A stretch of 52,238 nt of DNA from NCBI GenBank assembly GCA_964437855.1, contig CAYTJE010000001.1, positions 1 to 52,238 on the forward strand, in the 5' to 3' direction. Made by a program: the position numbers and the translations under genes. Source of the stretch: an uncultured Anaerolineales bacterium (GTDB lineage: Bacteria > Planctomycetota > Phycisphaerae > FEN-1346). Under the pieces are notes generated by a model that worked only from the letters and a program-made list of their open reading frames with translations, did not search any database and had not been told where the DNA came from. How positions within the stretch are numbered: the first letter of the stretch is position 1; every line of letters begins with the position of its first letter. Shown here piece by piece: positions 8,043 through 43,063 of this stretch.

Positions 8043-8110
8043 GGGGCGCTCCGAACGGACGAACCGCAACCTTACGGTTGCGGCTCGGGCGAAGCAAGTA
8101 TAAAAGGCCC

Positions 8111-22257: not shown

Positions 22258-23976
22258 ATGAACCGCCGCCAGTTTCTGCGAACCGCCGGTCTCGGAGCCG
22301 CCGCCTTCCTCACCGGGTGCCGGGCCGCCGCCCGTGCAGCCGCCCCGGCCAAGCGGCCGAACATCATCCTCATCATGTCCGACGACATGGGGTACTCGGA
22401 CCTCGGGTGCTACGGGGGCGAGATTGAGACGCCCACCCTCAATTCGCTAGCGGCCAAGGGCGTCCGCTTCACCCAGTTCTACAACACGGCCCGGTGCTGC
22501 CCCACGCGGGCCAGCCTGATGACCGGCCTGTACCAGCACCAGGCGGCCGTCGGCCACATGATGGGCGACCGCAACCTGCCGGGCTACCGCGGCGACCTGA
22601 GCCGGAATGCCGTCACCATTGCCGAGGCCGTCAAGCCCGCCGGCTACGCCGCCTACATGTCCGGCAAGTGGCACGTGACGCCCCACACCCGCCCGGACGG
22701 CCCCAAGCACAACTGGCCGCGGGCGCGCGGGTTCGACCGTTTCTTCGGCACCATCCACGGGGCGGGGTCGTTCTACGACCCGAACAGCCTGACCCGCGAC
22801 AACACCCAGATTCCGCCCGGCAAGGACTTCTATTACACCGATGCCATCAGCGACAATGCCGCCGGCTACATCCGCGACCACAGGAAGCAGAAACCCGACG
22901 CGCCCTTCTTCATGTACGTGGCCTATACGGCCGCCCACTGGCCGATGCACGCCCGGCCGGAAGACATCGCCCGCTACAAAGGCCGGTACGACGCGGGCTG
23001 GCAGGAGATCCGCCAGGCCCGGTACAAACGGATGCGCCGGATGGGCCTCCTGAAGGAGCCGTGGGACCTCTCGCCCCGCGACGCCAAACGCTGGGAACAG
23101 GTCTCGGAGGCAGACAAAAAGTGGCACGCCCGCCGCATGGAAGTCTACGCCGCCATGGTCACCGTCATGGACTCTGGGCTAGGCCGCATCGTCCAGGCCC
23201 TGAAGGAGACCGGCCAGTACGAGAACACGCTCATCCTCTTCCTCGAGGACAACGGCGGGTGCGCCGAGGAGTTCGGCAGCCGCGGCAAGCCGCGCAACCA
23301 CGCCAAAAACCTCAAGAAGGCCGAACCGATGGCCCCGGACGCCCTCCAGACCCACATGGTGCCGCCCGTCACGCGCGACGGCCGCCCCGTGCGCGTGGGT
23401 CACGGCGTAATGCCCGGCCCGGCCGACACGTACATCGCCTACGGCAAGGAGTGGGCGAACGTCTCGAACACCCCCTTCCGCCTGTACAAGCACTGGGTGC
23501 ACGAGGGCGGCACCGCCACGCCGCTCATCGCCCACTGGCCCGCCGGCATCCCGACGGACCGGCACGGGGCGATGGAGCGGCAGCCCGGCCACCTCATCGA
23601 CATCATGGCCACCTGCGTCGACCTCGCCGGCGCCGACTATCCCGAAACGTTCAAGGGGAACCGGATCACGCCGATGCAGGGCGTGAGCCTGGCCCCAGCG
23701 TTCCTCGGCAAAGACGTGGGCCGCGACGAGCCCATCTACTTCGAGCACGAGGGCAACCGCGCCATCCGCGACGGCAAGTGGAAACTCGTCGCCAAGGGCG
23801 CGGGCGGACCGTGGGAACTGTACGACATGGAGGCCGACCGCAGCGAACTCCACGACCTGGCCGGGAAGCACCCCGACCGCGTCCAGGCGATGGCCGAGCG
23901 GTGGGAGGCCTTCGCCCGCCAGGCCCACATGATCCCCTGGCCCTGGAAAGGCAAGTACCGACGCAAGAAGGGATAA
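22258..23976 (+). CDS. Sulfatase 3 (arylsulfatase-like, Cys-type, Tat signal)
   Basis: MNRRQFLRTAGLGAAAFL, MSDDMGYSD and CCPTRASLMTG. GAAAGGAG RBS at 22245-22252. Confidence 0.9.
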   Translation: MNRRQFLRTAGLGAAAFLTGCRAAARAAAPAKRPNIILIMSDDMGYSDLGCYGGEIETPTLNSLAAKGVRFTQFYNTARCCPTRASLMTGLYQHQAAVGHMMGDRNLPGYRGDLSRNAVTIAEAVKPAGYAAYMSGKWHVTPHTRPDGPKHNWPRARGFDRFFGTIHGAGSFYDPNSLTRDNTQIPPGKDFYYTDAISDNAAGYIRDHRKQKPDAPFFMYVAYTAAHWPMHARPEDIARYKGRYDAGWQEIRQARYKRMRRMGLLKEPWDLSPRDAKRWEQVSEADKKWHARRMEVYAAMVTVMDSGLGRIVQALKETGQYENTLILFLEDNGGCAEEFGSRGKPRNHAKNLKKAEPMAPDALQTHMVPPVTRDGRPVRVGHGVMPGPADTYIAYGKEWANVSNTPFRLYKHWVHEGGTATPLIAHWPAGIPTDRHGAMERQPGHLIDIMATCVDLAGADYPETFKGNRITPMQGVSLAPAFLGKDVGRDEPIYFEHEGNRAIRDGKWKLVAKGAGGPWELYDMEADRSELHDLAGKHPDRVQAMAERWEAFARQAHMIPWPWKGKYRRKKG

Positions 23977-23996: not shown

Positions 23997-24105
23997 GAGT
24001 CCCGACCGAGCCGGTCGCGGAAGCGGCCGGTTATCGCCTCCCGTCGTGGTCCGAGCCGCCGCGACTAACCCCGCCCCGCCGCTGCCGCGTCGGGCTGAGC
24101 ACGGA
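23997..24105 (+). repeat. Sulfatase-leader element, divergent copy c4
   Basis: Hairpins CCGGTCGC-GGAA-GCGGCCGG and CCCGCCGC-TGCC-GCGTCGGG, with a core ..CCCGTCGTGGTCCGAG. It ends 14 nt before the sulfatase 4 ATG. Confidence 0.5.
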
Positions 24106-24118
24106 GAAAGGCCCTCTT

Positions 24119-25618
24119 ATGAACCGCCGCACGTTTCTGCACTCGGCCGGCCTGGGGGCCGTGGGCCTGGCCCGGGCCGCCACCGCCATGGAGCGGGCCC
24201 CCAGCGCCGCTCGCTCGCGCTCGCGGCTAGCAGAGACAAACCGGGTCGCGACCGCCCCCCGAGCCGCGACCCTAAGGGAGCGGCCCAACATCCTCCTCAT
24301 CCTCCCCGACGACCAGACCTGGCGAGACAACGGCTGTTACGGCCACCCGGACGTCCGCACGCCGAACATCGACCGCCTGGCCGAGGCGGGCATGCGGTTT
24401 ACCCACTGCTTTACCGCGACGGCCATGTGCGCCCCCACCCGCCAGCAACTCTACACGGGCCTCTTTCCCGTCCGAAACGGCGCCTACCCGAACCACAGCC
24501 GCGTCTACGGCGGGACCCGGAGCATGGTCCACCACCTGAAGGCCCTGGGGTACCGGGTGGGCATCGCCGGGAAACACCACTTCGGCCCGCGCGACTCGTT
24601 CCCCTTTGAGAACCTCAAGCCCAAGGACGTGCCGGCGTTCATCGGCCGCAAGCCGGACGAGCCGTTCTGCCTCATCGTCTGCTCGCACAGCCCGCACCTG
24701 CCGTGGAAGGCCGGCGACGCCTCCGCCTACGACCCGGACGCCCTCACCCTGCCGCCCTACCTGGTGGATACGCCCGAGACGCGCGAGGCCCTCACGAAGT
24801 ACTACGCCGAGATCACGGACTTCGACCGCGAGGTGGGCGAGTGCATGCGGCACGTGCGTGAGGCCGGCGCCGAGAAGGACACGATCTTCATCTACACGAG
24901 CGAGCAGGGCGCCCAGTTCCCGCACGGCAAATGGACGTGTTACGACGTGGGCCTGCGCACCGCCCTGGTGGTCCGCTGGCCCCGTCGCGTCAAACCGGGC
25001 ACCACCACCGACGCCCTGGTCCAGTACGTGGACGTGGTGCCGACGCTGATCGAGGCGGCCGGCGGCGACCCGGCCCGGATCGACACCGGCTGCCCGGACG
25101 CCCGGGGCGAGACCGGCTTCGACGGCCGCAGTTTCCTCGGCGTCCTCCTCGGCCGGGCCGACACGCACCGCGACGCCGTCTACGGCGCCCACACCACGCG
25201 GGGCATCATCGCCGGGTCCGACTGTTACCCCATCCGCTCGGTCCGCACCCGGCGGTACAAGTATATCCGCAACCTGAACCACGAGTCGGCGTTCCACAAC
25301 GTCCTGATCCAGCGGGAGAAGTCCTACTGGCCGTCGTGGCAGGAGAAGGCCAAGACCGACCCCAAGGCCGCCTACCTGGTCCGGATGTACGAGCACCGGC
25401 CGGCCGAGGAACTCTACGACCTGCGGGCGGACCCGTGGGAACTGGAGAACCTGGCCGATGAGCCCGCCCTGGCCCGGGTCAAGGCCGACCTCCGCAAACG
25501 CCTGGACGCCTGGATGGCCCAGCAGGGTGATAAGGGCAACGCCACCGAGATGCAGGCCCGCCAGCGCCAGGGCCGCGGCAAGAAGAAGAAACGGGCCAAG
25601 GCCAAACCGGACGCCTGA
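24119..25618 (+). CDS. Sulfatase 4 (Cys-type, Tat signal; heparan/N-sulfoglucosamine-sulfatase-like)
   Basis: MNRRTFLHSAGLGAVGLA, LPDDQ and CAPTRQQLYTGL. The spacer between the signal and the mature domain is unusually long. Confidence 0.9.
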   Translation: MNRRTFLHSAGLGAVGLARAATAMERAPSAARSRSRLAETNRVATAPRAATLRERPNILLILPDDQTWRDNGCYGHPDVRTPNIDRLAEAGMRFTHCFTATAMCAPTRQQLYTGLFPVRNGAYPNHSRVYGGTRSMVHHLKALGYRVGIAGKHHFGPRDSFPFENLKPKDVPAFIGRKPDEPFCLIVCSHSPHLPWKAGDASAYDPDALTLPPYLVDTPETREALTKYYAEITDFDREVGECMRHVREAGAEKDTIFIYTSEQGAQFPHGKWTCYDVGLRTALVVRWPRRVKPGTTTDALVQYVDVVPTLIEAAGGDPARIDTGCPDARGETGFDGRSFLGVLLGRADTHRDAVYGAHTTRGIIAGSDCYPIRSVRTRRYKYIRNLNHESAFHNVLIQREKSYWPSWQEKAKTDPKAAYLVRMYEHRPAEELYDLRADPWELENLADEPALARVKADLRKRLDAWMAQQGDKGNATEMQARQRQGRGKKKKRAKAKPDA

Positions 25619-25674
25619 CCGCCGCGGGGCCGCCCTCGTCAGCCCGCCGGGGCGGCGGCGGGTTGGCTCGGCGG

Positions 25675-25703
25675 TTGACCGTGGCGGGTGGGCGGTTTAG
25701 AAT
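25675..25703 (+). promoter_or_regulatory. Sigma70-like promoter for sppA: TTGACC-17-TAGAAT
   Basis: The -35 is at 25675-25680 and the -10 at 25698-25703. AAGGAGA RBS at 25723-25729. Confidence 0.55.
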
Positions 25704-25736
25704 CCGGTCTGTTCCCGCGCCTTAAGGAGACCGGTT

Positions 25737-26795
25737 ATGAGCGATGGATCCTGGACGCCCGGAGGCCCCGGGTCCGCCGTGCCGCCGTCGTCCCCGCCGC
25801 CCGCGCAGCCGCCGCCCCGCCGCAGCCGCGTGCTGACGGTGCTCGGCACGATCGTCCTGGTCCTCTCGATCCTGGCGAACATCGTGCTGCTCCTGGTGGT
25901 GGTCGGCCTGATAGGCATGGTGGGGATGATGGGTGCCGGCGGCGGCGTGGTGGAAACGCCGCTGCTGGAGCGCACACTCGAGCGGGGTCCGGCGTCGACC
26001 AAGGTCGCCGTCGTGCGGATTCAGGGCCTCATCGAGGACACCCAGGCCGAGCGGGTCCGCCGGCAACTGGACAAGGCCGCCCGCGACGATGCCGTCCGGG
26101 CCGTCATCCTCCGCATCAACTCGCCCGGGGGGTACCTGACCGCCAGCGACGTCCTGTACCACCACATCCGCCGATTCGCCGAGGAAAGCGGCAAGCCGGT
26201 CGTGGCGGCGATGGACTCCGTGGCGGCCTCCGGCGGGTACTACGCCGCCTGCGCCGCCGAGACCATCGTGGCCCAGCGGACCACCGTGACCGGGTCGATC
26301 GGCATCATCGCCCAGTACTTCTTCCTGAACAGCCTGATGGAAGACAAACTGGGCATCCAGATGGTGACGCTGAAGCGCGGCCGGCAGAAGGACTGGCCGA
26401 ACCCCTTCGCGGCCGAGATGACCCCCGAACAGCGCGACTACATCATGACCTCGCTCCTGGACCCCGGCTACGACCAGTTCGTGGACGTGGTGGCCGAGGG
26501 GCGGGACATGGACCGCCCGGACGTGCTCCGCCTGGCCACCGGCCGCATCTTCATGGGCCCCGAGGCCCGCGCGAGCGGCCTCGTGGACGAGATCGGCTAC
26601 TTTGAGCGGGCCGTCGCCATCGCCAAGGAGAAGGCCGGCGTGGCCGAGGCACGGGTCGTCGAGTACGTCCAGCCGTTCTCCCTGATGAACCTGATGGGCC
26701 TGACGGCCAAGGCGGAGTCGCTGCTGGACCTGAGGCCGGAGACGCTGCCCGCCCTCTCCTCACCGCGAATTATGTACCTGTGGACGGGTCAGTAA
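25737..26795 (+). CDS. sppA: Signal peptide peptidase SppA (36K type)
   Basis: N-terminal TM helix, INSPGG, AASGGYYAA and TGSIGI motifs. Confidence 0.9.
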   Translation: MSDGSWTPGGPGSAVPPSSPPPAQPPPRRSRVLTVLGTIVLVLSILANIVLLLVVVGLIGMVGMMGAGGGVVETPLLERTLERGPASTKVAVVRIQGLIEDTQAERVRRQLDKAARDDAVRAVILRINSPGGYLTASDVLYHHIRRFAEESGKPVVAAMDSVAASGGYYAACAAETIVAQRTTVTGSIGIIAQYFFLNSLMEDKLGIQMVTLKRGRQKDWPNPFAAEMTPEQRDYIMTSLLDPGYDQFVDVVAEGRDMDRPDVLRLATGRIFMGPEARASGLVDEIGYFERAVAIAKEKAGVAEARVVEYVQPFSLMNLMGLTAKAESLLDLRPETLPALSSPRIMYLWTGQ

Positions 26796-26814
26796 TACGA
26801 CGGAACGGCCTTGT

Positions 26815-26836
26815 GCGCGGTCCGGACGGACCGCGC
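26815..26836 (+). terminator. REP-type hairpin after sppA, possible terminator
   Basis: GCGCGGTCC-GGAC-GGACCGCGC, followed a few nt later by a short T run (GTGTTTTC). Confidence 0.4.
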
Positions 26837-26898
26837 GACAGGGTGTTTTCGGGACGGCGCGGTCCGTACCCGCTGTGCCCGTCCCTTTCTGCTGCGCG

Positions 26899-26927
26899 TT
26901 GACACCTCCGCGACCGGCCCCTAAGAT
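26899..26927 (+). promoter_or_regulatory. Sigma70-like promoter for hemL: TTGACA-17-TAAGAT
   Basis: The -35 is at 26899-26904 and the -10 at 26922-26927. Confidence 0.55.
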
Positions 26928-26969
26928 GGTCTCTGACGGTTCCCCGCGACTCGAGTGTCGAGGTCCGGC

Positions 26970-28319
26970 ATGCACGGTGCGTCCGACGGCCCCCCCCTCC
27001 GAGGCAGCGCCGAGGCGCTGGCGCGCGCCGAGCGGGTCATGCCGGGCGGCGTCTCCAGCCCGGTCCGGGCTTACGGGGCGGTGGGCGGGCGGCCGCCCTT
27101 CATCGCCTCCGGCCGGGGAGCCCGCCTCACGGACATCGACGGCAACACCTATATCGATTACGTGTGCAGTTGGGGACCGCTCATCCTGGGCCACGCGCAC
27201 CCGCAGGTGGTGGACGCGGTGCGGGAGGCGCTGGAGGCGGGGGCCTCCTTCGGCGCCCCGACGCTTCGCGAGATCGACCTGGCCGAACGCGTCGCCGACG
27301 CCATGCCGCACGCCCAGCAGGTCCGCTTCGTCAACTCGGGGACCGAGGCGACGATGAGCGCCCTTCGGCTGGCGCGGGCGGCCACGGGGCGGCCCGGCGT
27401 CCTCAAGTTCGAGGGGGGCTACCACGGCCACGTGGACGGCCTCCTGGTGGCCGCCGGCAGCGGCGCCACGACCTTTGCTGCTCTGCGAAGCAACGAGGCT
27501 TCGCTGCGAAGCACGAGCGGCTCGCCGGCCAGCCCCGGCGTGCTCGCCGAGACCGTCCGGCACACGCACCTCGTGCCCTTCAACAACCTGGAGGCCGCCG
27601 CCGAGACGTGCGAGGCCCACGCCGACGCCCTGGCCTGTATCCTGGTGGAGCCGGTGGCCGGGAACATGGGCGTTGTGCCGCCCGCCGACGGATTTCTGGA
27701 CGGCCTCCGCCGATTGGCCGACCGGCACGGCCTGCTCCTGGTGTTTGACGAGGTGATGACCGGTTTCCGGGTAGCCCGGGGCGGCGCGGCCGAGCGATAC
27801 AACGTGACGCCCGACCTGGTGACGTTGGGCAAGGTCCTTGGCGGCGGACTGCCGGTGGGCGCCTACGGCGGCCGGGCCGACCTCATGCAGCAGGTCAGCC
27901 CCGCCGGGCCGGTGTACCAGGCGGGCACGCTGTCGGGAAATCCGCTGGCCATGGCCGCCGGAATCGTTACGCTGGACGTATTGGCCGAGCCGGGCGCCTA
28001 CGAGCAACTCGAGACGGCCGGCGCCCGCCTGGCCGACGGCCTGGCCCAGGCCGCCCGCGAGGCCGGCGTCCGGGCCCGCGTGCAGCGGGTCGGCTCGATG
28101 CTGTCACTGTTCTTTACGGATGGACCGGTAACCGATTACGCCTCGGCGAGGCGGTGCGACACGCAGGCGTTCGGGCGGTTCCACGGGGCGATGCTGGCCC
28201 GCGGCGTCTACCTGCCGCCAAGCCAGTTCGAGGCCTGGTTCGTGAGCCTCGCCCACGGCGAGGCGGAGATCGACCGGACCGTCGAGGCCGCCCGCGAGGC
28301 CCTGCGCGACCTCGCCTGA
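26970..28319 (+). CDS. hemL: Glutamate-1-semialdehyde 2,1-aminomutase
   Basis: PGGVSSPVRA, SWGPLILGH, NSGTEATMSALRLAR, DEVMTGFR and YQAGTLSGNP, collinear with HemL as I recall it. An alternative GTG start lies at 26955. Confidence 0.92.
   Translation: MHGASDGPPLRGSAEALARAERVMPGGVSSPVRAYGAVGGRPPFIASGRGARLTDIDGNTYIDYVCSWGPLILGHAHPQVVDAVREALEAGASFGAPTLREIDLAERVADAMPHAQQVRFVNSGTEATMSALRLARAATGRPGVLKFEGGYHGHVDGLLVAAGSGATTFAALRSNEASLRSTSGSPASPGVLAETVRHTHLVPFNNLEAAAETCEAHADALACILVEPVAGNMGVVPPADGFLDGLRRLADRHGLLLVFDEVMTGFRVARGGAAERYNVTPDLVTLGKVLGGGLPVGAYGGRADLMQQVSPAGPVYQAGTLSGNPLAMAAGIVTLDVLAEPGAYEQLETAGARLADGLAQAAREAGVRARVQRVGSMLSLFFTDGPVTDYASARRCDTQAFGRFHGAMLARGVYLPPSQFEAWFVSLAHGEAEIDRTVEAAREALRDLA
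27477..27518. repeat. 42-nt palindromic insert in frame in hemL
   Basis: GCGAAGC-AACGAG-GCTTCGC-T-GCGAAGC arms, translated as AALRSNEASLRSTS. This lies between AGSGA and SPGV, where E. coli HemL has only about 7 residues (from memory). Confidence 0.5.
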
Positions 28320-28392
28320 CGGGCCGCGGCGCGGCCGGTCTGCCGGTCCGCCCCGGCAAGCCGTGCCGAACAACAGTCCAGGGAGAGACGCC

Positions 28393-29295
28393 ATGGCTCA
28401 AGAGCAGAAGCGCGACCAGACGGTTCGTCTGCCCAATCCGAGCGCCCAGCCGTTCGTCGCCGCCCTGAAGACGGTGCGGTTCTTCGCCGTGCTGTTCTTC
28501 TGGGTGGCCATGGTGTGCGTCCTGGCCCACGTGGCGGCGTTCGTGTTGACCGAATGGGTGGGCCTGTACGAGGAGTCGGAGACCGACCCGCCGCCGGCCG
28601 AGATCCCGGCCGAGGCGGCCGCCTCCGCTCCCGCACCGTGGCTGGGCCTCGTGGAGTCGTCGGCCGTGGCAGGCCAGCCGGGCGAACTGTTCCCGAACGT
28701 CAAACCCGACCAGCCGGCGAAGGCGGCGACCGAGACGACCGACGCGGCACCGGCCGAACCGGAGACGCCTCCGCCCGCCCCGGAACCGGAGGCGAACGAG
28801 GAGGAGGGCGTCGTCGGCATGGGCGGCGGGACGGAGACGTCCGAGGAAGCGTTACCCGAGACCCCGGAGGACGGCCGCGGCGCCGCCTTCTATCGCCGGG
28901 TGACCGCCCGCGTGCTGCGCCCGGCCCGGGTGGTCGGCATCCTGGCGTCGATTCTGCTGGCGGTGACGGTGTTTCTGTACCTTCAGATCGCCCTGCTGGG
29001 CCGGCTGGCGGGGATCCGCCAACTGACCCGGGCCCTGTTTCTCCTGCTGCTCTTCCTGGTGACCGTCCTGCCGTGGAGCAACGTCTTTGAAGAGGTGCAG
29101 GTTACCGCGCTGTACGATTTTGCCCAACTTCTGTCGGACCACGCGGCGGGGGCGGGGGCCTCGGCGGACTGGGCCGAGGCGGGCCTGTACTACGGCCGGT
29201 ACTTCGTCTTCCCGGCAATCGGCGTGCTGCTGCTGGGTCTGGCAGGGCTCCACTTCGCCGGGGGTTACAGCCGGTCGGTCCTCGCGAACGAGTAG
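28393..29295 (+). CDS. Hypothetical membrane protein (N-terminal TM, acidic/Pro-rich linker, C-terminal TM bundle)
   Basis: Start at ATG 28393 with AGGGAGAGA upstream. Hydrophobic segments FFAVLFFWVAMVCVLAHVAAFVL and VVGILASILLAVTVFLYL. No known domain recognised. Confidence 0.6.
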   Translation: MAQEQKRDQTVRLPNPSAQPFVAALKTVRFFAVLFFWVAMVCVLAHVAAFVLTEWVGLYEESETDPPPAEIPAEAAASAPAPWLGLVESSAVAGQPGELFPNVKPDQPAKAATETTDAAPAEPETPPPAPEPEANEEEGVVGMGGGTETSEEALPETPEDGRGAAFYRRVTARVLRPARVVGILASILLAVTVFLYLQIALLGRLAGIRQLTRALFLLLLFLVTVLPWSNVFEEVQVTALYDFAQLLSDHAAGAGASADWAEAGLYYGRYFVFPAIGVLLLGLAGLHFAGGYSRSVLANE

Positions 29296-29315
29296 CCGGA
29301 CGGAGGCCCGTCACC

Positions 29316-30332
29316 ATGATCCGGTTCCGCTGTCCGCACTGCGACTCGCAGATGGAGGTGGACGAATCGTTCGCCGGGCAGCCGGCCCGGTGCCCCACGT
29401 GCGGGACGACCCTGAAGGTGCCGGCCGAAGACACCTCGCACGCCCGGGCGGCCCCGGCCGGGGGATCGCGGCGCGGCACGGCGCGCGTCATGATCGGCGG
29501 GGAAGACGTCGACGTGGTTCCCCCGCTGGATACGATGGTCATCGTCAGCCTGGTGTGTGTGGGGCTGGCGGTGGGGGTGTTTCTGCTTGCCGGCCTGACG
29601 AAGTTCGTCCGCCTGCCGTGGGCCGTGGGCGCGCTGCTGGGCATGCTGATGGCGCTGCTGGGCGTGATCGTGGCGATCCCGGCCTACCATAGCATCCGGC
29701 GGAGCAAGGGGCGGCGCCGCGGCCGGACCCACGCGATGATCGCCCTGGGGTCCGGGAGCGGCCTGTTTCTGATCTTCGCCGTCGTCGCGCTCGTCCTCTT
29801 TCTGCGTCACTTCTATATGCGTGCAACTTGCGAGGAGAACCTGGAGCACATCTACGTGGCCCTGCGCCAGTACGCCGATGACCACAAGGGCGCATTTCCG
29901 CCGGCGCTCGAGACCCTCGCGGACGAAGGGTACCTCCCCAGCGACCGCTGGCTCACCTGCCCGGCCCACGTCAAGGCGTCGATCGGCGAGAATACCTACG
30001 TTCTGACCCCCGAGATCAACGTCGAGGCCAAGCGCCCCGGCGGCGAGCCCTGGTGGCCGCCCGACACCATGATCGTCAGCGACGGCCGGCCCGACGCTCA
30101 CCAGGACGGCAAGGTCCGCGTGCTGCTCTTGAACGGCGAGATCAAACACATCCCCCTGTCCGAGTGGTACGCCTACCGGAAAACTCAGAACCAGCGCTGG
30201 AGCCGCATCGTCATGGAGCGGCGCGAGGCCCGGCCACGCAAACCGGGGCCACCGCCGGAGCGGCCGAAGACGCCGCCGCCCGCCAGCGGGGACCCATCGG
30301 CCGCCGGGACATCCAAGGAGACCGGCCCGTGA
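29316..30332 (+). CDS. Zinc-ribbon membrane protein with a DUF1559/pseudopilin-like C-terminal segment
   Basis: MIRFRCPHCDSQMEV..ARCPTCGTTLKVP, several TM helices, then CEENLEHIYVALRQYADDHKGAFPP, which resembles planctomycete H-X9-DG family heads. Confidence 0.6.
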   Translation: MIRFRCPHCDSQMEVDESFAGQPARCPTCGTTLKVPAEDTSHARAAPAGGSRRGTARVMIGGEDVDVVPPLDTMVIVSLVCVGLAVGVFLLAGLTKFVRLPWAVGALLGMLMALLGVIVAIPAYHSIRRSKGRRRGRTHAMIALGSGSGLFLIFAVVALVLFLRHFYMRATCEENLEHIYVALRQYADDHKGAFPPALETLADEGYLPSDRWLTCPAHVKASIGENTYVLTPEINVEAKRPGGEPWWPPDTMIVSDGRPDAHQDGKVRVLLLNGEIKHIPLSEWYAYRKTQNQRWSRIVMERREARPRKPGPPPERPKTPPPASGDPSAAGTSKETGP

Positions 30333-30658
30333 CGAACGAGCCCATCGAGACCGAGGCCGACCGCGACGACGGCCCGTCCGCCCTGATGAAGGCCCTGGCC
30401 GCGGTCATGCTCGTCATCCCCCTGGCGGGCATCGCCTGGCACGTGTACGTATCCCTAGCCCTGGACGACGAGGCCGTCTCCGCCTACCTCCGAAGCCTGT
30501 GGCTGAAGGCGCTGGCGCTGGTGGCGTTCTTCAACCTCCTGGGCAACTGGTTCCACTACCGCCACACCCGGATGAAGGTGGACCTCGCCTCGCGCATCCT
30601 GACCTACGTGTGGGTCATCTCGATGGTCCTCTTATTCCGGCGCGTCGTGAACTGGTGA
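30329..30658 (+). CDS. Small hypothetical membrane protein
   Basis: GTG at 30329 overlaps the upstream stop (GTGA), with AAGGAG at 30315-30320. Three predicted TM helices. Confidence 0.5.
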   Translation: MTNEPIETEADRDDGPSALMKALAAVMLVIPLAGIAWHVYVSLALDDEAVSAYLRSLWLKALALVAFFNLLGNWFHYRHTRMKVDLASRILTYVWVISMVLLFRRVVNW

Positions 30659-30697
30659 CGCCGGAACTGACGTGACCGCGGCACCGGGTTCCTTTGC

Positions 30698-31528
30698 GTG
30701 ACGGTTTCCGCCGACGAGAGGGATTCCGTGACCGATCTGGCCGTCGTCTTCCCGACTGCCGGCGAGTTCGAGAAGGCCCGCCGCGCCCTTCGCCACGCCG
30801 GGGCAGCCTACCGGGTCGTGGAGCCGCCCGTCGAGGTCGCCGACGTGGCCGTGCCGCTGCTCGTCCTGCCCGACGCCTCGCGCGGAGCCCTGCACGAGTC
30901 CTTACGCGCCGGCGTGATGATGGCCGGCCAGGTGCCTTACCGGGAACCGGCGGGCGACGTCCTGGCCGACCTGCCGCCCGCCCCGGCCGGCGCCGACGAC
31001 GTCGTCGGCCGCATCACCATCGCCTTCGTCGGCCCGTGCGTCGCCACCGCGGACGAGATCCGGTTCACGGCCCAGGTCCAGGGCGACCTGGCGCCGGTGA
31101 TGCCGTATCTGAACGCCACCCTCCCCGCCGGCACGTATGGACCGGAGGGGCCCACGTTCACCTTGATGGACGGTCAGCGGCTGGTGAATCTGTCGGGACA
31201 CCGTATCGCGGTCTCGCGCTGCCGCGAGATGCTCGACGCCTGGCGGACGCTGGCCAAGGTCAAACGCACGGTGCTGGACGTGTGGTCGCGGCGAGAGGGG
31301 ATTCAGCCAAGCACGGAGCGGCGCGTCCAGGTCACGGCCCTGGAGGTCTACCAGCGGACGCCGCAGATCAACTGCGGCGCCTGCGGCGAGCCGACGTGCA
31401 TGGCCTTCGCCGCCCGGCTCGTGGCAGGGGAGCAGCGGCCGGAGCACTGCACGCCGGCGCTGGAGGGCGAATACCAGCATCTGCGCGCGGGCCTGCGGGA
31501 GATCGCCGACCGCCTTGGGCTGGGATGA
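30698..31528 (+). CDS. (Fe-S)-binding protein: DUF3343-like N-domain plus a C-terminal CFeSP/RnfB-type 4Fe-4S domain
   Basis: C-terminal INCGACGEPTCMAFAARLVAGEQRPEHC. The N-terminal VVFPTAGEFEKARRALRHAGAAYRVV resembles DUF3343. The start is either 30698 (GTG) or 30728 (GTG with GAGAGGGA upstream). Confidence 0.6.
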   Translation: MTVSADERDSVTDLAVVFPTAGEFEKARRALRHAGAAYRVVEPPVEVADVAVPLLVLPDASRGALHESLRAGVMMAGQVPYREPAGDVLADLPPAPAGADDVVGRITIAFVGPCVATADEIRFTAQVQGDLAPVMPYLNATLPAGTYGPEGPTFTLMDGQRLVNLSGHRIAVSRCREMLDAWRTLAKVKRTVLDVWSRREGIQPSTERRVQVTALEVYQRTPQINCGACGEPTCMAFAARLVAGEQRPEHCTPALEGEYQHLRAGLREIADRLGLG

Positions 31529-31614
31529 CCGCCGAAACCCTCGACACGGCCCGCCCCGTGCCGTAGTTTAAGAGGTGTTGGGTACCACGGGTGGCTTGCC
31601 GCGCGCATGTAGCG

Positions 31615-31712
31615 AGGCGGCCGCCGGAGCGGCCGGCCATCTTCATCCGCCGTGGTAGATACCAGGGCCGATGAGGATGCCCCGACGGTTCCGCATCGGG
31701 CTCGGGCTCGGC
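31615..31712 (+). repeat. Sulfatase-leader element, divergent copy c3
   Basis: Hairpin CGGCCGC-CGGA-GCGGCCG, core CATCTTCATCCGCCGTGGTAGATACC, and hairpin CCCGACGG-TTCC-GCATCGGG. Confidence 0.5.
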
Positions 31713-31755
31713 GAGTCGGGAAACCCGCCGCGCGATTCTTTGTCAGGAGACCATC

Positions 31756-34329
31756 ATGTTCCGACCCACGCGACGTGAGTTTCTGAAGGCCGCAGCCGCC
31801 GGTGCGGCCGTCTCGGTCGCCCCGCACCTCGTCCGCCGTGCAGCCGGCGCCGTCACCAATCCGAAGGAACGGCCGAACATCCTCTGGCTGAGTGCCGAGG
31901 ACCTCAGCCCCACCCTGGGCTGCTACGGCGACTCTTGCGCCGACACGCCGAATCTCGACAAGTTTGCCGCCCAGGGCGTCCGCTACGACAACGCCTTCAC
32001 CCACGCGCCCGTGTGCGCCCCCGCGCGCAGTGGCATCATCACGGGGATGTACCACACGACGATCGGCACCTCGTGGATGCGATGCAGCGGCGTGCCGCCC
32101 GTCGAGGCCCGTTGCTTCCCCGAGTATCTGCGGGCGTACGGGTACTACTGTACGAACAACTCGAAGACCGATTACCAGTTCTCGCCCCCGCCCACGGCGT
32201 GGGACGAGTCGAGCCGGAAGGCCCACTGGCGCAAGCGCCCACGGAAGGACCAGCCGTTCTTCGCCGTCTTCAACTTCACCGTCACACACGAGTCGAGCAC
32301 CCGGCGGTGGAAGGAGGGCCAGCAGCAACACGACCCCGCCAAGGCCCCCGTCCCGCCGTACTACCCGGACACGCCCGTCGTCCGGCAGAACATCGCGTGC
32401 TACTACGACAAAGTGTCGCAACTGGATGGCCAGATCGCCGACCGCCTGAAGGAACTGGAGCAGGCGGGCCTCGCCGACGACACCATCGTCTTCTTCTGGG
32501 GCGACCACGGGTGGGGGCTGACGCGCGGCAAGCGGTGGGTGTACGATTCCGGCATCCGCGTGCCGCTCATGGTCCGCGTGCCGGAGAAGTGGCGCCGGTG
32601 GGCGGAGGCGGGCGTCGTCGGTTCGGTGGCCCCGGGGACGGTGGCGACGGAGTTTGCGCGGTTCCTGGACTTCGCCCCCACGGTCCTCAGCCTGGCGGGG
32701 GGGCTGATTCCCGACCACATGCAGGGCCGGGCCTTCCTGGGGCCGCAGAAAGGCAAGGAGCCCGCTTACGTCTACGCCGCCCGCGACCGCATGGACGAAA
32801 CGTACGACTGCATCCGCGCCCTCCGAGACAAAAAGTACAAGTATATCCGGAACTTTATGCCATACCTGCCCCGCGGCCAGATCATCAACTACATGGACCA
32901 GACGCCCATCCTGAAGGAGATGCGGCGGCTGCACGACGCGGGCAAACTCAAAGACGGTCCCCAGATGCAGTTCTTCGAACCCACCAAGCCCGTCCACGAA
33001 CTCTACGACATCACCCGCGACCCGCACGAGGTCCACAACCTGGCCGGCGACCCGAAGCACCAAAAAACCGTCGAGCGCATGGAGGCGGCCCTGTTTGCCA
33101 AGATGAAGGCCATCGGCGACGTCGGCCTCATCCCCGAGTGCGAGTTCGACCAGATGAAGGGTTCCGGCCGGACCGACCCGCCCGTCTTCACCGTCACCGG
33201 CGGCGGAAACGGCAAGGCCCAGATGGTCCGCCTGACGTGCCCGACGCCCGGTGCCTCCATCACCTACCAGGTCAGCGAGCCCCCCGAAGCCGGGGGCGGC
33301 ACGGTCCTTCTGCCCGCCGCCAAGGCCCGCATCCACGGCAACGGGGCCAAGAAGAGCGGCGACCACATCAGCCACTGGCGCGGCAAGGACACCTACGTGG
33401 CCTGGAAGGCGAAGGTGCCGGCCGCCGGCCGCATGCCCGTCTGGATCGCCCAGGCCAATGCCGGCGAGAGCGGATCCGAATACGAACTCGCCATCGGCGA
33501 CGCCAAACTCACCGGCCGCATCCAGCACACCAATGGCTGGGAGACATGGAAATGGGTCCGCGTGGGCGAGGTCACGCTCGAAAAGGGCGGCACGGTCGAG
33601 GTCCGCCTCACGCCCACGAAGCAGGTCCAGGGGCGGCTGGGGAACGTTCGGGCCGTCGCCATCGGCGGCGAGAAGCCCCCCGAGACCGCGCGGGGGGCGG
33701 CCTGGCTCCTCTACCACGAGCCCATCGAGGTCGCCCCGGGCGAGCGGGTCCAGGCCAAGGCCGCACGCCTCGGCTACGCCGCGAGCGCCACCGCAACGTT
33801 TACCTACGGTGACGCGGGCGAGCCGCCCGCCAAGCCGAAGCCCGATGAGACGCCGTGGCGGAAGAAGATTGACGAGAGCGGGATGATCGACCGGATTCTC
33901 GCCCTCAAGGCCTACGACGGCCGGTGGACCGAGGGAGAGCAGGCGTACCTGGCGGCCCTGGCCGACCCCACCGGCCCCGTCCGTTACTGGGCCGTGGTGG
34001 GGCTGCACCAGGCGTATGCGGACGGCCCGCCGCCGCGCAAGATCCTGGAGAAGGTCCGGGCGCTCCTCGCGGACGAGGCGCCGTCGGCGCCCATCGCCGC
34101 CGCCCACGCCCTGGTGGCCTGGGGTGAAACGGAGGCGGGCCTCGCGCGCCTGGTCGAGGCTCTGAAGGCACCGGGCGAGAAGACGCGGCTCCTCGCGGGC
34201 CACGTGCTGGAAGTCCTCGGCCCAAAGGCCAAACCCGCCGCCGCCGAAATCGAGAAGGCCGCCAACGGCCAGGGCGGCTACCCCGGCCGACTCCTCCCGC
34301 GCGTCGTCAAGGCGCTGAAGGAGGCGTAA
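31756..34329 (+). CDS. Sulfatase 5 (Cys-type, Tat signal) with a long C-terminal extension (Fn3-associated/CBM-like modules and HEAT-like repeats)
   Basis: RREFLKAAAAGAAV, SAEDLS and CAPARSGIITGM. The C-terminal half has TCPTPGASITYQV, a WETWKWVRVGEV beta-sandwich-like segment, and VRYWAVVGL/AAAHALVAWGE helical repeats. Confidence 0.85.
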   Translation: MFRPTRREFLKAAAAGAAVSVAPHLVRRAAGAVTNPKERPNILWLSAEDLSPTLGCYGDSCADTPNLDKFAAQGVRYDNAFTHAPVCAPARSGIITGMYHTTIGTSWMRCSGVPPVEARCFPEYLRAYGYYCTNNSKTDYQFSPPPTAWDESSRKAHWRKRPRKDQPFFAVFNFTVTHESSTRRWKEGQQQHDPAKAPVPPYYPDTPVVRQNIACYYDKVSQLDGQIADRLKELEQAGLADDTIVFFWGDHGWGLTRGKRWVYDSGIRVPLMVRVPEKWRRWAEAGVVGSVAPGTVATEFARFLDFAPTVLSLAGGLIPDHMQGRAFLGPQKGKEPAYVYAARDRMDETYDCIRALRDKKYKYIRNFMPYLPRGQIINYMDQTPILKEMRRLHDAGKLKDGPQMQFFEPTKPVHELYDITRDPHEVHNLAGDPKHQKTVERMEAALFAKMKAIGDVGLIPECEFDQMKGSGRTDPPVFTVTGGGNGKAQMVRLTCPTPGASITYQVSEPPEAGGGTVLLPAAKARIHGNGAKKSGDHISHWRGKDTYVAWKAKVPAAGRMPVWIAQANAGESGSEYELAIGDAKLTGRIQHTNGWETWKWVRVGEVTLEKGGTVEVRLTPTKQVQGRLGNVRAVAIGGEKPPETARGAAWLLYHEPIEVAPGERVQAKAARLGYAASATATFTYGDAGEPPAKPKPDETPWRKKIDESGMIDRILALKAYDGRWTEGEQAYLAALADPTGPVRYWAVVGLHQAYADGPPPRKILEKVRALLADEAPSAPIAAAHALVAWGETEAGLARLVEALKAPGEKTRLLAGHVLEVLGPKAKPAAAEIEKAANGQGGYPGRLLPRVVKALKEA

Positions 34330-34404
34330 CAGAAACGTATAGCACGGTGGGTCTCCGCACCCGCCGCGCAAGGTTTGTCATTCCGACCGAGCCGGCGCAT
34401 GCTC

Positions 34405-34518
34405 GTCGTTCGATCCCGCCGCGGGAGCGGCGGGTCATCACCATCCGCCGTGGTCGACAACCAAGGCAGACGCCGATGTCCGGCTGCTTCCGCAGCCGGC
34501 TCGAACGGCAAACAGGCA
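34405..34518 (+). repeat. Sulfatase-leader element copy c1 (114 nt, structured, inverted termini)
   Basis: GTCGTTCGATCC-[CCCGCCGC GGGA GCGGCGGG]-TCATCACCATCCGCCGTGGTCGAC...[CCGGCTGC TTCC GCAGCCGG]-CTCGAACGGCAAACAGGCA. It ends 25 nt before ATG 34544. Confidence 0.75.
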
Positions 34519-34543
34519 CCCCGCACAGCACGAAAGGACCGCC

Positions 34544-36145
34544 ATGAACCGTCGCAGGTTTCTCGAGACCGCCGGCCTCGGCGCCGCTGCCGTCGCCGGG
34601 GCGACCCTCGGGCCGCTCGCACGCCCGTCTTGCGCCGGCGAACCGGCAAGCGCTTCCGGCGGCGCGGGCGACCAGCGCCCCAACATCCTCCTCATCATGG
34701 CCGACGACGTGGGCTACGCGGACATCGGCTGTTACGGGTCGGAGATCCGAACGCCCACCCTCGACGGCCTCGCCCGCCGGGGTATCCGGTTCACCCAGTT
34801 CTACAACATGGCCAAGTGCAACCCGACCCGCTCGACGCTGCTGACGGGCCTGTACTTCCGCAAACGTCATGCGGAGAACGCCCGCTCGCTCGGCACGCTG
34901 ATGCGGCAGGCGGGCTACTACGCCGCCACCAGCGGAAAGGAACATTTTGACGGCTGGGTGCCGAAGCACTGCTACGCCACCGAGTCGTTCGACGACGCCT
35001 TCACCTTCTACGCCTGCACGCAGTACTTCATTCCGCCGGGGTGGGACTTCACCCGCCCGTTCCAACTGAACGGCGAGGTGCTCAGGCCCGAGGCGATTCC
35101 CGTCTCGCGCAAACCGTTCTACAAAACGGACGTCATCACCGACTACGCCCTGCGGTTCCTCGATAAGGCGGAGGCGGCCGAGAAGCCCTTCTTTCTGTAC
35201 CTGCCGTACCACGTGGCCCATTACCCGCTCCAGGCGCGGCCGGAAGACATCAAGAAATATCGCGGCCGCTACCGGAAAGGGTGGGATGCCGTCCGGGCCG
35301 AGCGGTTCGCCCGGCAGAAGAAACTGGGCGTCCTGCCGCCGAACACGACACTCTCCGAGCCGGAGGATAACATCTACCCCCACCGCGGCGACGATGAGTG
35401 GTCCTCCTACACCCCGTGGGACGAGGTACCCGAGAGCAAGAAAGGCCGCCTCGACCTGGAGATGGCCGTCTTCGCCGCCATGATCGACCGGATGGACCGG
35501 AACATCGCCCGGGTCCTGGCGAAGATCGAGGCCATGGGCCGGGCGGAGAACACCCTCGTCCTGTTCCTCGTCGACAACGGGTCGTGCCCGTTCGACAACG
35601 GCGGCAAGCGTGACGCCAACGCCCCGCTCGGCAGCGCGGGCTCGTACGCGTTCCTGCGGCCGGCGTGGGCGTGCGTCGGCAACACACCGTGGCGGTACTA
35701 CAAGCAGTACGGGCACGAGGGCGGCCCGCATACGCCCTTCATCGGCCACTGGCCGGGCGTCATCGAACCGGGCATCACGCACCAGGTGGGGCACGTGGCG
35801 GACATCGTGCCCACGCTCCTGGAGGCGGCGGGCACCTCGTATCCGCAGGAGGCCGACGGCAAGCCGACCCCCGCGCTGGACGGGTCGAGCCTGATGCCGA
35901 TCTTCCGCGGCGGGGCGCGGCCGCAGCCGGAGATCCTCGTCTCCGGCTGGAAAAACGCCAGGCGGATGGTCCGCGTGGGCGACTGGAAGATCGTCTGCGT
36001 CAAAAACCGCCCGTGGGAACTCTATCGGATGGACGCCGACCCCGCCGAGACAAACAACCTGGCCGATGCGCGGCCGGAGAAGGTCAAGGAGATCGTCGCG
36101 CAATACCAAGCGTGGCTCGAGGCGAACGACGCCAGGCCGACGTGA
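34544..36145 (+). CDS. Sulfatase 6 (arylsulfatase-like, Cys-type, Tat signal)
   Basis: MNRRRFLETAGLGAAAVAGATLGPLARP, MADDVGYAD and CNPTRSTLLTGL. Confidence 0.9.
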   Translation: MNRRRFLETAGLGAAAVAGATLGPLARPSCAGEPASASGGAGDQRPNILLIMADDVGYADIGCYGSEIRTPTLDGLARRGIRFTQFYNMAKCNPTRSTLLTGLYFRKRHAENARSLGTLMRQAGYYAATSGKEHFDGWVPKHCYATESFDDAFTFYACTQYFIPPGWDFTRPFQLNGEVLRPEAIPVSRKPFYKTDVITDYALRFLDKAEAAEKPFFLYLPYHVAHYPLQARPEDIKKYRGRYRKGWDAVRAERFARQKKLGVLPPNTTLSEPEDNIYPHRGDDEWSSYTPWDEVPESKKGRLDLEMAVFAAMIDRMDRNIARVLAKIEAMGRAENTLVLFLVDNGSCPFDNGGKRDANAPLGSAGSYAFLRPAWACVGNTPWRYYKQYGHEGGPHTPFIGHWPGVIEPGITHQVGHVADIVPTLLEAAGTSYPQEADGKPTPALDGSSLMPIFRGGARPQPEILVSGWKNARRMVRVGDWKIVCVKNRPWELYRMDADPAETNNLADARPEKVKEIVAQYQAWLEANDARPT

Positions 36146-36155
36146 AGCGCCAAGT

Positions 36156-36269
36156 GTCGTTCGAACCCGCCGCGGGAGCGGCGGGTCATCACCATCCGGC
36201 GTGGTCGATGACCTCGGTAGAGGCGGATGACCGGCTGCTCCCGCAGCCGGCTCGAACGGCAAACAGGCA
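36156..36269 (+). repeat. Sulfatase-leader element copy c2 (114 nt)
   Basis: Same length and ends as c1. There are about 12 mismatches by eye, mostly in the central 28 nt. It ends 27 nt before ATG 36297. Confidence 0.75.
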
Positions 36270-36296: not shown

Positions 36297-37856
36297 ATGA
36301 ACCGCCGCACGTTTCTCGAAACGGCCGGCCTCGCCGCCGCCGCCGGGGCGACCCTCGGGCCGCTCGTCCGCCCGGCCCGCGCCGCCGGAGGCAAGAAGGA
36401 CGACCGGCCCAACATCCTCCTCATCATGGCCGACGACATGGGCTTCTCCGACGTCGGCTGCTACGGCGGGGAGGTCCGCACGCCGCACATCAACGGCCTG
36501 GCCCGCCGCGGCATCCGCTTTACCCAGTGCTACAACAACGCCAAGTGCGGGCCCACGCGGGCGTCGCTCCTGACGGGGCTGTACGACCAGCAGGTCGGTA
36601 CCCGGCCACTGAAGCACTGCGTGACCCTGGCCGAGGTCCTGAAGGCCGCCGGCTACCGGACCCTGATGACCGGCAAGTGGCACCAGAGCGAGATTCCCGT
36701 CCATCGCGGCTTCGACCGCTACTTCGGCCTGGCCGACGGGTGCTGCAACTTCTGGAACCCCGGCCGAGAGCGCGAGGGCGAGCCGCCCCCCGGCCGCAAG
36801 TGGAAACGCTGGCGGCGATGGGCCATCGACGACCAGGTCTTCCAGCCGTACACGCCCGAGGACCGCGACTTCTACACCACCGACGCCTTCACGGACTACG
36901 CCCTTAAGTATCTCGACCGGTACGGCAAAGAGGACCGCCCCATCTTCCTGTACCTGGCGTACACGGCCCCGCACTATCCGCTGCACGCCTGGCCGGACGA
37001 CATCGCCCGCTACCGCGACACGTACACGGTGGGGTGGGACGAAATCCGCCGACGCCGCTGGAAGCGGCAGGTGGCGATGGGCCTGACTGCCGACCACTGG
37101 GACCCCTCGCCGCGCGACCCCTCCGTCACCCCGTGGGACGAGGCGAAGGGCAAGGACGAATGGGCCCTGAAGATGGCCGTCTACGCCGCCATGATCGACC
37201 GCATGGATCAGAACATCGGCCGCGTGCTCGCCAAGTTCCGTGACCTCGGGCGCCTGGAGAACACGCTCGTCCTCTTCCTCTCGGACAACGGCGGATGCGC
37301 CGAGAACGTGAACAAGACGCCGGAGGTGCCACCCGGCCCACTGCCCTCGTACCGGACGGTCGATAAGCCGTGGGCGAACGCCTCGAACACACCGTTCCGC
37401 AAGTACAAATCGTGGGACCACGAGGGCGGCATCTGCATGCCCTTCGTCGTCTCCTGGCCGCGCGTCGTCACCGACGGCGGCCGCATCGACCGCCGCGTCG
37501 GCCACATCATCGACGTGATGGCCACCGTCTGCGACGTGGCGGGGGCCGAGTATCCGTCGGAATATGACGGCCACAAGGTCCTGCCCCTGGAGGGCAAGTC
37601 GCTCCGGCCGCTCATCGAGGGCAAGGACCGCGAGGGACACGAGGCCCTGTACTGGCAGTTCGGTGGCTCCAAGGCCGTCCGGGCCGGCCAATGGAAACTC
37701 GTCAAACACGGCAAGGCCGACTGGGAACTGTACGACATGGAAGCCGACCGCTGCGAACTTCGCGACCTCGCAACGCAGCACCCCGACCGCGTCGAACGGA
37801 TGGCCGGGATGTGGGACGACTGGCGCCGGCGCTGCGCCCGCGATTACAAGGGCTGA
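36297..37856 (+). CDS. Sulfatase 7 (arylsulfatase-like, Cys-type, Tat signal; tandem paralog of sulfatase 6)
   Basis: MNRRTFLETAGLAAAAGATLGPLVRP, MADDMGFSD and CGPTRASLLTGL. GAAAGGAG RBS at 36285-36292. Confidence 0.9.
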   Translation: MNRRTFLETAGLAAAAGATLGPLVRPARAAGGKKDDRPNILLIMADDMGFSDVGCYGGEVRTPHINGLARRGIRFTQCYNNAKCGPTRASLLTGLYDQQVGTRPLKHCVTLAEVLKAAGYRTLMTGKWHQSEIPVHRGFDRYFGLADGCCNFWNPGREREGEPPPGRKWKRWRRWAIDDQVFQPYTPEDRDFYTTDAFTDYALKYLDRYGKEDRPIFLYLAYTAPHYPLHAWPDDIARYRDTYTVGWDEIRRRRWKRQVAMGLTADHWDPSPRDPSVTPWDEAKGKDEWALKMAVYAAMIDRMDQNIGRVLAKFRDLGRLENTLVLFLSDNGGCAENVNKTPEVPPGPLPSYRTVDKPWANASNTPFRKYKSWDHEGGICMPFVVSWPRVVTDGGRIDRRVGHIIDVMATVCDVAGAEYPSEYDGHKVLPLEGKSLRPLIEGKDREGHEALYWQFGGSKAVRAGQWKLVKHGKADWELYDMEADRCELRDLATQHPDRVERMAGMWDDWRRRCARDYKG

Positions 37857-42948: not shown

Positions 42949-43063
42949 ACAACGCTATGTCAGCATGGTGCGCGGCGGGTCTGGATTACCCACCGCGCCC
43001 GAATCGGGCATTCTGCGTCTGCGCGGCGGGTGCGGAGACCCGCCGCGCACGAGATAGCGTTGT
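42949..43063. repeat. Family A REP doublet bracketed by a 10-bp inverted repeat
   Basis: ACAACGCTAT ... [TGCGCGGCGGGT..ACCCACCGCGC] ... [TGCGCGGCGGGT-GCGGAG-ACCCGCCGCGCA] ... ATAGCGTTGT. Confidence 0.8.

Follow-up and report, generated by a model that had tools for sequence, protein, structure and literature searches.

What is a structured element of about 114 nt doing in front of a series of sulfatase genes, and does it belong to these genes at all? This question is raised by a 52,238-nt contig of an uncultured bacterium (CAYTJE010000001.1; "the window" denotes this whole stretch of DNA), which has a G+C content of 70% and whose proteins find their nearest matches in uncultured Phycisphaerae and Planctomycetota. 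The window carries seven sulfatase genes (Pfam PF00884), all on the plus strand, and four of them are each preceded by one copy of the element. The original prediction, made from the sequence alone, proposed either a cis-regulatory leader or operator of a sulfatase regulon or a subfamily of miniature inverted-repeat transposable elements (MITEs). From the anatomy of the copies, their covariation and their distribution in related contigs, we consider it likely that they form a family of palindromic intergenic repeats built as an inverted dimer of repetitive extragenic palindromes (REPs), similar to REP doublets forming hairpins (REPINs) or bacterial interspersed mosaic elements (BIMEs), and not a sulfatase-specific switch.

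The sulfatases S1 (19266-20747), S2 (20750-22201) and S3 (22258-23976) are tightly packed; S1 overlaps the preceding gene, the S1-S2 gap is 2 nt and the S2-S3 spacer is 56 nt, as had been noted. The gene overlapping the start of S1, by 4 nt (ATGA), encodes a radical SAM protein with a B12-binding domain (17779-19269) whose architecture is not that of the usual SPASM-type anaerobic sulfatase-maturing enzyme, and a link to sulfatase maturation may or may not exist. S4 (24119-25618), S5 (31756-34329, with DUF5077 and HEAT repeats in Pfam), S6 (34544-36145) and S7 (36297-37856) have a 5' spacer of their own, 142-228 nt in length, and each of these four spacers holds a copy on the plus strand, at the places where the original prediction had put them. 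Two copies are full elements of a stem subtype that we call type I, c1 in the S5-S6 spacer (34405-34518, 111 bits with a covariance model) and c2 in the S6-S7 spacer (36156-36269, 109 bits). The other two belong to type II: a divergent element, c3, in the 5' region of S5 (about 31611-31714, 88 bits) and a decayed copy, c4, in the S3-S4 spacer (about 23997-24105, 71 bits), their bit scores coming from a model built in part from c3 and c4 themselves. In c4 the pairing is eroded, with Watson-Crick pairs at 25 of 46 positions and a folding z-score of -1.3.

The copies end 25 nt (c1), 27 nt (c2), 43 nt (c3) and 13 nt (c4) before the start codons at 34544, 36297, 31756 and 24119, respectively, close to the predicted range of 14-45 nt, and c1 begins 75 nt past the S5 stop codon. 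About 12 central mismatches had been counted by eye between c1 and c2; both are 114 nt long and differ at 11 positions, 10 of which fall within element positions 44-85, giving 90% identity. At the protein level S6 and S7 share only 49% identity, too little for a recent duplication of an element together with its gene to explain the likeness of c1 and c2, and we rejected a tandem duplication of this kind. The remaining copies, c3 and c4, are diverged homologues that are 62-69% identical to c1 and c2. Overall, the core pattern has 6 matches in the window against 0.9 expected, and the pattern of the first hairpin has 8 against 0.43.

Each element consists of two inverted hairpin units around a further hairpin. 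In c1, hairpin 1 (hp1) is CCCGCCGC-GGGA-GCGGCGGG and hairpin 3 (hp3) is CCGGCTGC-TTCC-GCAGCCGG; in c3 they are GCGGCCGC-CGGA-GCGGCCGG and CCCGA..TCGGG. The type I stems are CCCGCCGC (hp1) and CCGGCTGC (hp3), and the type II stems are CCGGCCGC and CCCGnnGC. Both types coexist in single genomes, in the window as well as in the related contig L009, which has one of each. Hairpin 1, the core, hairpin 3 and the inverted termini of the original prediction are all present, together with the compensatory changes that it described, namely a C:G to G:C exchange at pair 3 of hp1, a U-G wobble in c4 and the hp3 swaps in c3. The reverse complement of hp3 fits the hp1 pattern with two mismatches in c1, c2 and c4, in agreement with the earlier view of hp3 as roughly an inverted hp1. 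The element is also pseudo-palindromic in that the core ATCNNCATCCGCCGTGGT repeats on the opposite strand ~20 nt downstream. The hp1 loops are GGAA, GGGA, GTAA or GTGA (GNRA) and the hp3 loops are their complements TTCC, TCCC, TTAC or TCAC, a logic that is retained even in divergent relatives of the element. The termini GTCGTTCGA / TCGAACGGC are inverted as well, and only CGAG/CTCG of them is conserved across copies.

We tested the fold on ten copies from five sources, aligned with MAFFT. The model comprises a closing stem CGAG...CTCG, which is longer in some copies, and three further helices: P1 (8 bp, GNRA loop), P2 (~20 bp, imperfect) and P3 (8 bp, with a loop complementary to GNRA). In these ten copies 81.3% of the pair cells are paired, compared with 31-48% in slid controls. 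Both partners change in 14 pairs, and 8 of 500 shuffles do as well on this count; for the paired fraction, the covariation score and the number of doubly changed cells, none of the 500 attains the observed value. P2 has 20 pairs, none of them invariant and five changed on both sides, with 74% of its cells paired. Among eight copies that had no part in model building, P1 is paired at 8/8 positions in all eight and P3 at 8/8 in seven, and some copies have their stems replaced wholesale, for example by GCGACC-GTGA-GGTCGC. In this model the single strand, be it mRNA or single-stranded DNA, folds as a four-helix junction in which the helices abut and leave no conserved unpaired bases. As RNA the structure is very stable, with folding energies of -48 to -73 kcal/mol. 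The competing model of a single long hairpin, in which hp1 pairs with hp3 as terminal inverted repeats would, was rejected: it showed no covariation above shuffles, and its column pair 25-107 is unpaired in 10/10 copies. Each short hairpin is therefore maintained in its own right.

Neither these junctions nor database searches point to a known RNA. The whole window gave no match to Rfam 15 at gathering thresholds, two permissive Rfam searches on single copies returned only generic miRNA-type hairpin noise far below threshold, and ARAGORN found no tRNA or tmRNA. The missing Rfam 15 match and the junction without conserved unpaired bases speak against a riboswitch or another curated cis-regulatory RNA.

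The distribution of copies outside the window separates the element from the sulfatases. We ran one exact core-pattern scan on a collection of 185,579 species genomes and one on a metagenome collection, and then applied the covariance model R1 to the pattern-scan loci and to loci fetched via protein homologues, reading neighbour-gene contexts from Pfam and gene lists. Viral contigs gave no match. Two metagenome matches (L004 and L008) were discarded as chance, being inside coding sequence and devoid of hairpins. Only one of the eight copies at pattern-scan loci outside the window adjoins a sulfatase, at its 5' end, and this copy is inverted (L006). Others occupy the mre operon: by Pfam and model search, L009 has one copy between mreC and mreD and another between mreD and pbp2, with all genes on the same strand, L017 and L015/16 have one in the mreC-mreD spacer and L020/21 have one in the mreB-mreC spacer. 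Further copies lie between LNT and HEAT-repeat genes (L019), directly past the stop codon of a convergent rho gene (L005), 5 nt past the stop codon of a convergent FAD oxidoreductase gene (L002), upstream of a TTGACA...TATAGT promoter-like site and a metallophosphoesterase gene (L003), and between a PQQ-propeller gene and a prenyltransferase-like gene (L001). The orientation relative to neighbouring genes is mixed (for example in L002, L005 and L006), and copies usually begin 0-25 nt past the upstream stop codon. With neither a sulfatase nor an orientation bias among these sites, the idea of a sulfatase-regulon leader or operator was not borne out, and is largely refuted by the criterion that the original prediction had set for it.

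Strict copies number four in the 52-kb window and one to three in each other contig; the pattern matched each of two species genomes once, and the model added a second, pattern-negative copy in one of them (L017). In L007, positions 121-424 hold 2.8 units, each of 109 nt, arrayed in tandem. The units are 97% identical and each contains the left half of the element (hp1 and core), and only the last one ends in a complete hp3. L001 (CAZNYC010000131.1) is labelled as an Anaerolineales metagenome-assembled genome, yet it has a full Phycisphaerae-type element, 71% G+C and planctomycete-like genes, and may be mis-binned.

Orthologous spacers reveal that copies come and go. The mreD-pbp2 spacer holds a copy in L009 and measures 54-55 nt without one in L017 and L020, and a copy also lies between mreC and mreD in L009, L015 and L017. 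In L020 only 38 nt and no element separate these two genes, and the copy sits in the mreB-mreC spacer instead. Between L009 and L017, the mre copies share no more than 80% identity. Near the sulfatases the picture is similarly sporadic. L010 and L011 encode S7 orthologues that are 84-85% identical to that of the window (BLASTP), but in the model search none of the three sulfatases in either contig has a copy (0/3 and 0/3), although several of their spacers span 188-409 nt; L010 has no copy anywhere on the locus and L011 has none near sulfatases. The 5' region of S5, which contains c3 in the window, is short and empty in L011 and holds a different palindrome in L010. Comparison of filled with empty sites (L009b with L017 and L020; c3 with L011) showed no flanking direct repeat or target-site duplication.

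The only relative retaining a copy upstream of S7 is L012, the closest one, whose S7 is 88% identical to that of the window (BLASTP). Its copy (L012 7893-8006), the orthologue of c2, matches c2 at 101/105 positions (96%), whereas identity amounts to 72.5% at fourfold sites of S7 (n = 255) and to 72% (26/36 positions) over the 36 nt that separate the element from the S7 start. This constraint is even stronger than that at first and second codon positions. In addition, the L012 copy matches c1 in its left flank but c2 in its interior and right flank, and the order of genes in L012 4270-7800 is swapped relative to window positions 31756-36145. The first gene there combines an S6-like body (85% identical) with an S5-type signal peptide (MFQPTRRKFLK...), and the second joins an S5-like body to another signal peptide and is broken up into two open reading frames (ORFs). 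The swap could reflect recombination in the signal-peptide coding regions or an assembly artefact. The mixed flanks and the altered gene order are compatible with recombination at the element, giving a hint, though no proof, of cassette reshuffling there.

The position of the copies relative to putative promoters was also considered. The four window copies occupy 5' or intercistronic positions that are transcribed. A σ70 promoter would not fit between element and start codon, and the promoter scan found none there, which forces co-transcription of the element with S4, S6 and S7. Upstream of c3, the alignment of the window, L010 and L011 contains a promoter-like TCGACA-N17-TAGTTT (31541-31569, plus strand); we infer a promoter role from its conservation in these three genomes, although it scores below the promoter-scan threshold. 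A TTGTCA-N17-CATGCT considered before c1 was dropped because TTGTCA belongs to the terminus motif of another repeat, described below. In the L009 mreD-pbp2 spacer, a promoter-like TTGATT-N17-TACGAT lies downstream of the copy (L009 ~1530-1565), which places this copy at the 3' end of a transcript rather than in a leader. The original prediction had itself made transcription starts downstream of the element decisive against a leader; conserved promoter-like sites do lie downstream at L009b, L003 and L020, whereas c3 lies downstream of its promoter-like motif.

The same TTGATT-N17-TACGAT directly upstream of pbp2 is conserved in five related contigs (L009, L015, L017, L019 and L020), and a TTTGCC-N17-TATAGG/TATAAG is conserved upstream of mreC; both motifs could help to define promoters in this lineage. 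The window also contains two near-consensus σ70-type promoters in element-free spacers, TTGACC-17-TAGAAT (25675-25703) upstream of an S49 peptidase gene and TTGACA-17-TAAGAT (26899-26927) upstream of an aminotransferase gene.

Beyond the strict copies, the model detected matches of 25-58 bits that share the architecture and a CGAGCC...GGCTCG closing stem and carry other stems, such as GCGACC-GTGA-GGTCGC and CCCGACC-GTAA-GGTCGGG. One of them lies in the window at 4149-4289 (plus strand, 46 bits); in its fold TTCGAGCC/GGCTCGAA closes a long central hairpin flanked by two short ones, and it adjoins hflX with no sulfatase nearby. A resemblance of TTCGAGCC to a T-arm was dismissed as coincidental. 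Further divergent relatives are found at L003 1523-1643, L002 2638-2775 and L019 4554-4674, and the mre copies of L015 and L020 are chimeras of modules. Relatives also occur within genes. Two hairpin modules (42095-42179, plus strand, 26 bits) lie in frame in a MiaB-like radical SAM gene (41492-42865), encoding roughly ...LAPLSSPDRKVGGARDLTVAARKAGAP..., and the L011 orthologue has the same insertion (~14851-14935), which is therefore old and tolerated. By model and pattern, a partial element with the closing stem and an exact hp1 (7005-7088, minus strand) lies in frame in a glycogen debranching enzyme gene (5820-8183, minus strand), where it separates the N- and C-terminal domains, and in L005 a relative (3861-3975) is in frame in polA (2305-5151, minus strand), in the stretch that links the 5'-3' exonuclease domain to the 3'-5' exonuclease domain.

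The window contains other repeat families as well. A second one, with the hairpin GCGGYGGGT-N6-ACCCRCCGC, occurs seven times in the window (7671-7694, 7721-7744, 8337-8360, 8384-8407, 31708-31731, 34344-34367 on the plus strand, and 43023-43046), where 0.08 copies would be expected, and is also present in spacers of L012 and L015; its copies at 34344-34367 and 31708-31731 adjoin c1, on the upstream side, and c3. A third type is a longer palindrome with termini TGTCATTYCGARCGAG ... CGAAATGACA, found at 549-668 and at L019 8451-8650 and 10560-10760. Its terminus motif TGTCATTCCGACCGAG (3 matches against 0.07 expected), which ends the palindrome at 549-668, also occurs just upstream of c1 (34376-34391, plus strand). 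Within ORFs the third repeat yields a recurrent 'HSEE..RDEE'-like peptide (in the glycogen debranching enzyme ORF and in ORF 4276-6066). The S5-S6 spacer is thus a mosaic of three repeat types.

Such an arrangement is known from other bacteria. REPINs are inverted REP doublets with a hairpin-forming spacer in which compensatory changes are common (Bertels & Rainey 2011, PMC3116915). Head-to-head REP dimers are mostly sited past coding regions whose neighbouring ORFs are unidirectional or convergent; heterodimers are preferred, and some copies reside within genes for replication and repair (Di Nocera et al. 2013, PMC3733652). Our elements share with them the two inverted conserved hairpin units around a less conserved hairpin spacer, the total length of ~100 nt, the extragenic position mostly just past coding regions of co-directional or convergent genes, the unlike units ('heterodimers'), the rare in-gene copies including one in a DNA polymerase gene, and the presence of several families per genome. 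They differ in that the units are perfect 8-bp GNRA-loop hairpins that produce a four-helix junction instead of one long hairpin, in that half of the spacer (CATCCGCCGTGGT) is conserved in sequence, and in their Phycisphaerae host. Classical REPINs have hundreds of copies per genome, and the apparent copy number here is far lower. The tagged REP super-families (PMC3733652) have an unpaired tetranucleotide, GTAG or CGTC, conserved at one end of the stem. A consistent tag is missing here: what precedes the closing stem differs from copy to copy (CGTC in c1; TGTC in c2 and L002; CCTC in L003; GTAG in c3; GCCT and others elsewhere), and these bases sit 7 nt from hp1, not adjacent to it.

Other known repeats resemble the element in part. 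BIMEs of Escherichia coli are mosaics of inverted REPs with other short motifs; the S5-S6 spacer with its second-family hairpin, third-repeat terminus and c1 is such a mosaic, and the copies are likewise intercistronic within operons and may be expected, by analogy, to affect the stability of mRNA segments, although the sequences are unrelated. With Rickettsia palindromic elements they share the occurrence of palindromic repeats both between genes and in frame in protein-coding genes; the phylum, sequence and GC content differ, and the in-gene copies here are divergent relatives or fragments and not members of the strict family. Enterobacterial repetitive intergenic consensus (ERIC) sequences and Correia-type MITEs can alter mRNA stability or processing, and they are, like the present elements, imperfect palindromes of ~100-150 nt in transcribed intergenic regions that form stable RNA hairpins. 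Here, however, no target-site duplication was seen, the conserved terminal inverted repeats are only 4-8 bp long and the internal hairpins covary independently. Integron attC sites have RYYYAAC ... GTTRRRY core sites around an imperfect palindrome, promoterless cassettes and an integrase nearby; this identity was rejected because the termini GTCGTTCGA / TCGAACGGC are off consensus, no integrase was found and copies reside in housekeeping operons.

How well does a REP-dimer-like repeat family hold up against its rivals? Several observations weigh against it. The exact core pattern occurs in only 2 of the 185,579 species genomes and in five real metagenome contigs, an apparently low copy number, and copies within one genome are old and diverged with no sign of recent bursts. 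Neither a REP-associated tyrosine transposase (RAYT/Y1, PF01797) nor another transposase was found among the Pfam-annotated genes of the window and ~250 kb of related loci. With no RAYT found, no consistent tag and a low apparent copy number, the elements cannot be assigned to the REPIN family proper. Sequence conservation of the 5' strand of P2 (CAUCCGCCGUGGU) from genome to genome finds no explanation in the repeat model, and the identity of c2 with its L012 orthologue points to purifying selection at the level of the locus and to some host-level or structural function, which a purely selfish element does not predict. Lastly, all four window copies precede sulfatases and 0/5 other junctions between 23.9 and 36.3 kb are filled, with a nominal p of ~0.008 (~1 in 126), a count made in a window chosen for this very pattern, while copies cluster in adjacent spacers elsewhere (L009, L007) and the relatives do not repeat the pattern.

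Part of this evidence would suit a general-purpose structured RNA that benefits the host without being mobile, stabilising, processing or terminating transcripts under purifying selection and taken up by many operons independently of one another, the sulfatase array among them. The conservation between c2 and L012 far above fourfold sites and the 3' flank, the strong covariation in P1, P2 and P3, the usual start 0-25 nt past a stop codon and the low apparent copy number all speak for it, as does the strand: of the two strands, it is the sense one that gives the better fold in 10/13 co-directional copies, and the model strand has 36 G-U pairs against 20 A-C mismatches. Both strand signals are weak, however, and the asymmetry is absent in the window copies (10 against 12). 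Copies face either way relative to their neighbours (L002, L005, L006), relatives lie in frame within coding regions, presence at orthologous spacers is sporadic, and hp3 loops that complement GNRA suit inverted DNA units and not the design of a single-stranded RNA. We therefore regard an immobile RNA of this kind as rather doubtful, with the qualification that it overlaps the repeat family, as REPs are often both at once. Unlikely, and slightly more so, is a selected, portable four-way-junction module at operon junctions that would set cistron stability or read-through and at the same time, as a dispersed direct repeat, serve as a recombination substrate reshuffling sulfatase cassettes. It draws on the conserved P2 core and on hp1 and hp3 being kept from mutual pairing, and the flanks and gene order of L012 hint in its direction.

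A leader or operator through which a regulator or ligand acts on the element and controls S4-S7 has the window in its favour, where 4/4 copies lie in the sense strand 13-43 nt upstream of sulfatase starts with the other five junctions of the same 12 kb empty, c3 follows a conserved promoter-like motif and the S7 copy is highly conserved in L012; the L006 copy, too, adjoins the 5' end of another sulfatase. That copy is inverted and is the only one of the eight at a sulfatase, the mre operon carries copies, and sulfatases of close relatives have spacers of their own without the element. Wholesale stem replacement and two subtypes per genome argue against a sequence-specific operator, c4 is decayed, and the junction offers no unpaired conserved nucleotides for a ligand pocket, so that we hold this explanation to be very unlikely. 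Least probable of all, in our judgement, is a classical MITE, a deletion derivative of a DDE-transposase insertion sequence that moved via its terminal inverted repeats and left target-site duplications. The inverted termini, the size of ~105-115 nt, the insertion polymorphism and the copies inside genes recall such elements, and to this extent the MITE proposal was right, in that a dispersed, pseudo-palindromic, insertion-polymorphic repeat is what we found. The classical form is contradicted by the lack of direct repeats at filled versus empty sites and by arms that each retain a hairpin of their own without staying identical to one another; conservation of the termini is confined to CGAG/CTCG, and no related insertion sequence or transposase was seen.

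Returning to the repeat family, we propose that the elements are an old family of low to moderate copy number in a clade of high-GC, uncultured Phycisphaerae-like bacteria. Each would be an inverted pair of REP-like hairpin units around the spacer hairpin P2, closed by CGAG...CTCG. Copies would be gained, lost, module-swapped and duplicated in spacers, in either orientation and at times in frame in genes, and in the window they would merely happen to fill the four spacers before S4-S7. The anatomy suggests spread by REPIN-like mobilisation of folded single-stranded DNA, or by recombination. By analogy with REPs, the most probable effect would be that of a stable RNA that shields the upstream mRNA from 3' exonucleases or partly attenuates read-through, thereby separating cistrons; the element itself would not sense sulfated-polysaccharide cues. 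On the same analogy we infer that the copies may, as DNA, act as recombination substrates.

For annotation, a 'sulfatase riboswitch or operator' would have been an attractive but misleading label; a defined repeat family now takes its place, and a covariance model together with clear filled and empty sites is now at hand for a poorly studied clade of uncultured Phycisphaerae. These results extend the REP-dimer, REPIN-like architecture to a high-GC lineage of the Planctomycetota-Verrucomicrobiota-Chlamydiota (PVC) group, in a variant with perfect GNRA hairpin units and a four-helix junction. For the sulfatase array, stable structures right before the ribosome-binding sites of four genes may still influence relative expression and the rearrangement of the array, in a generic manner.

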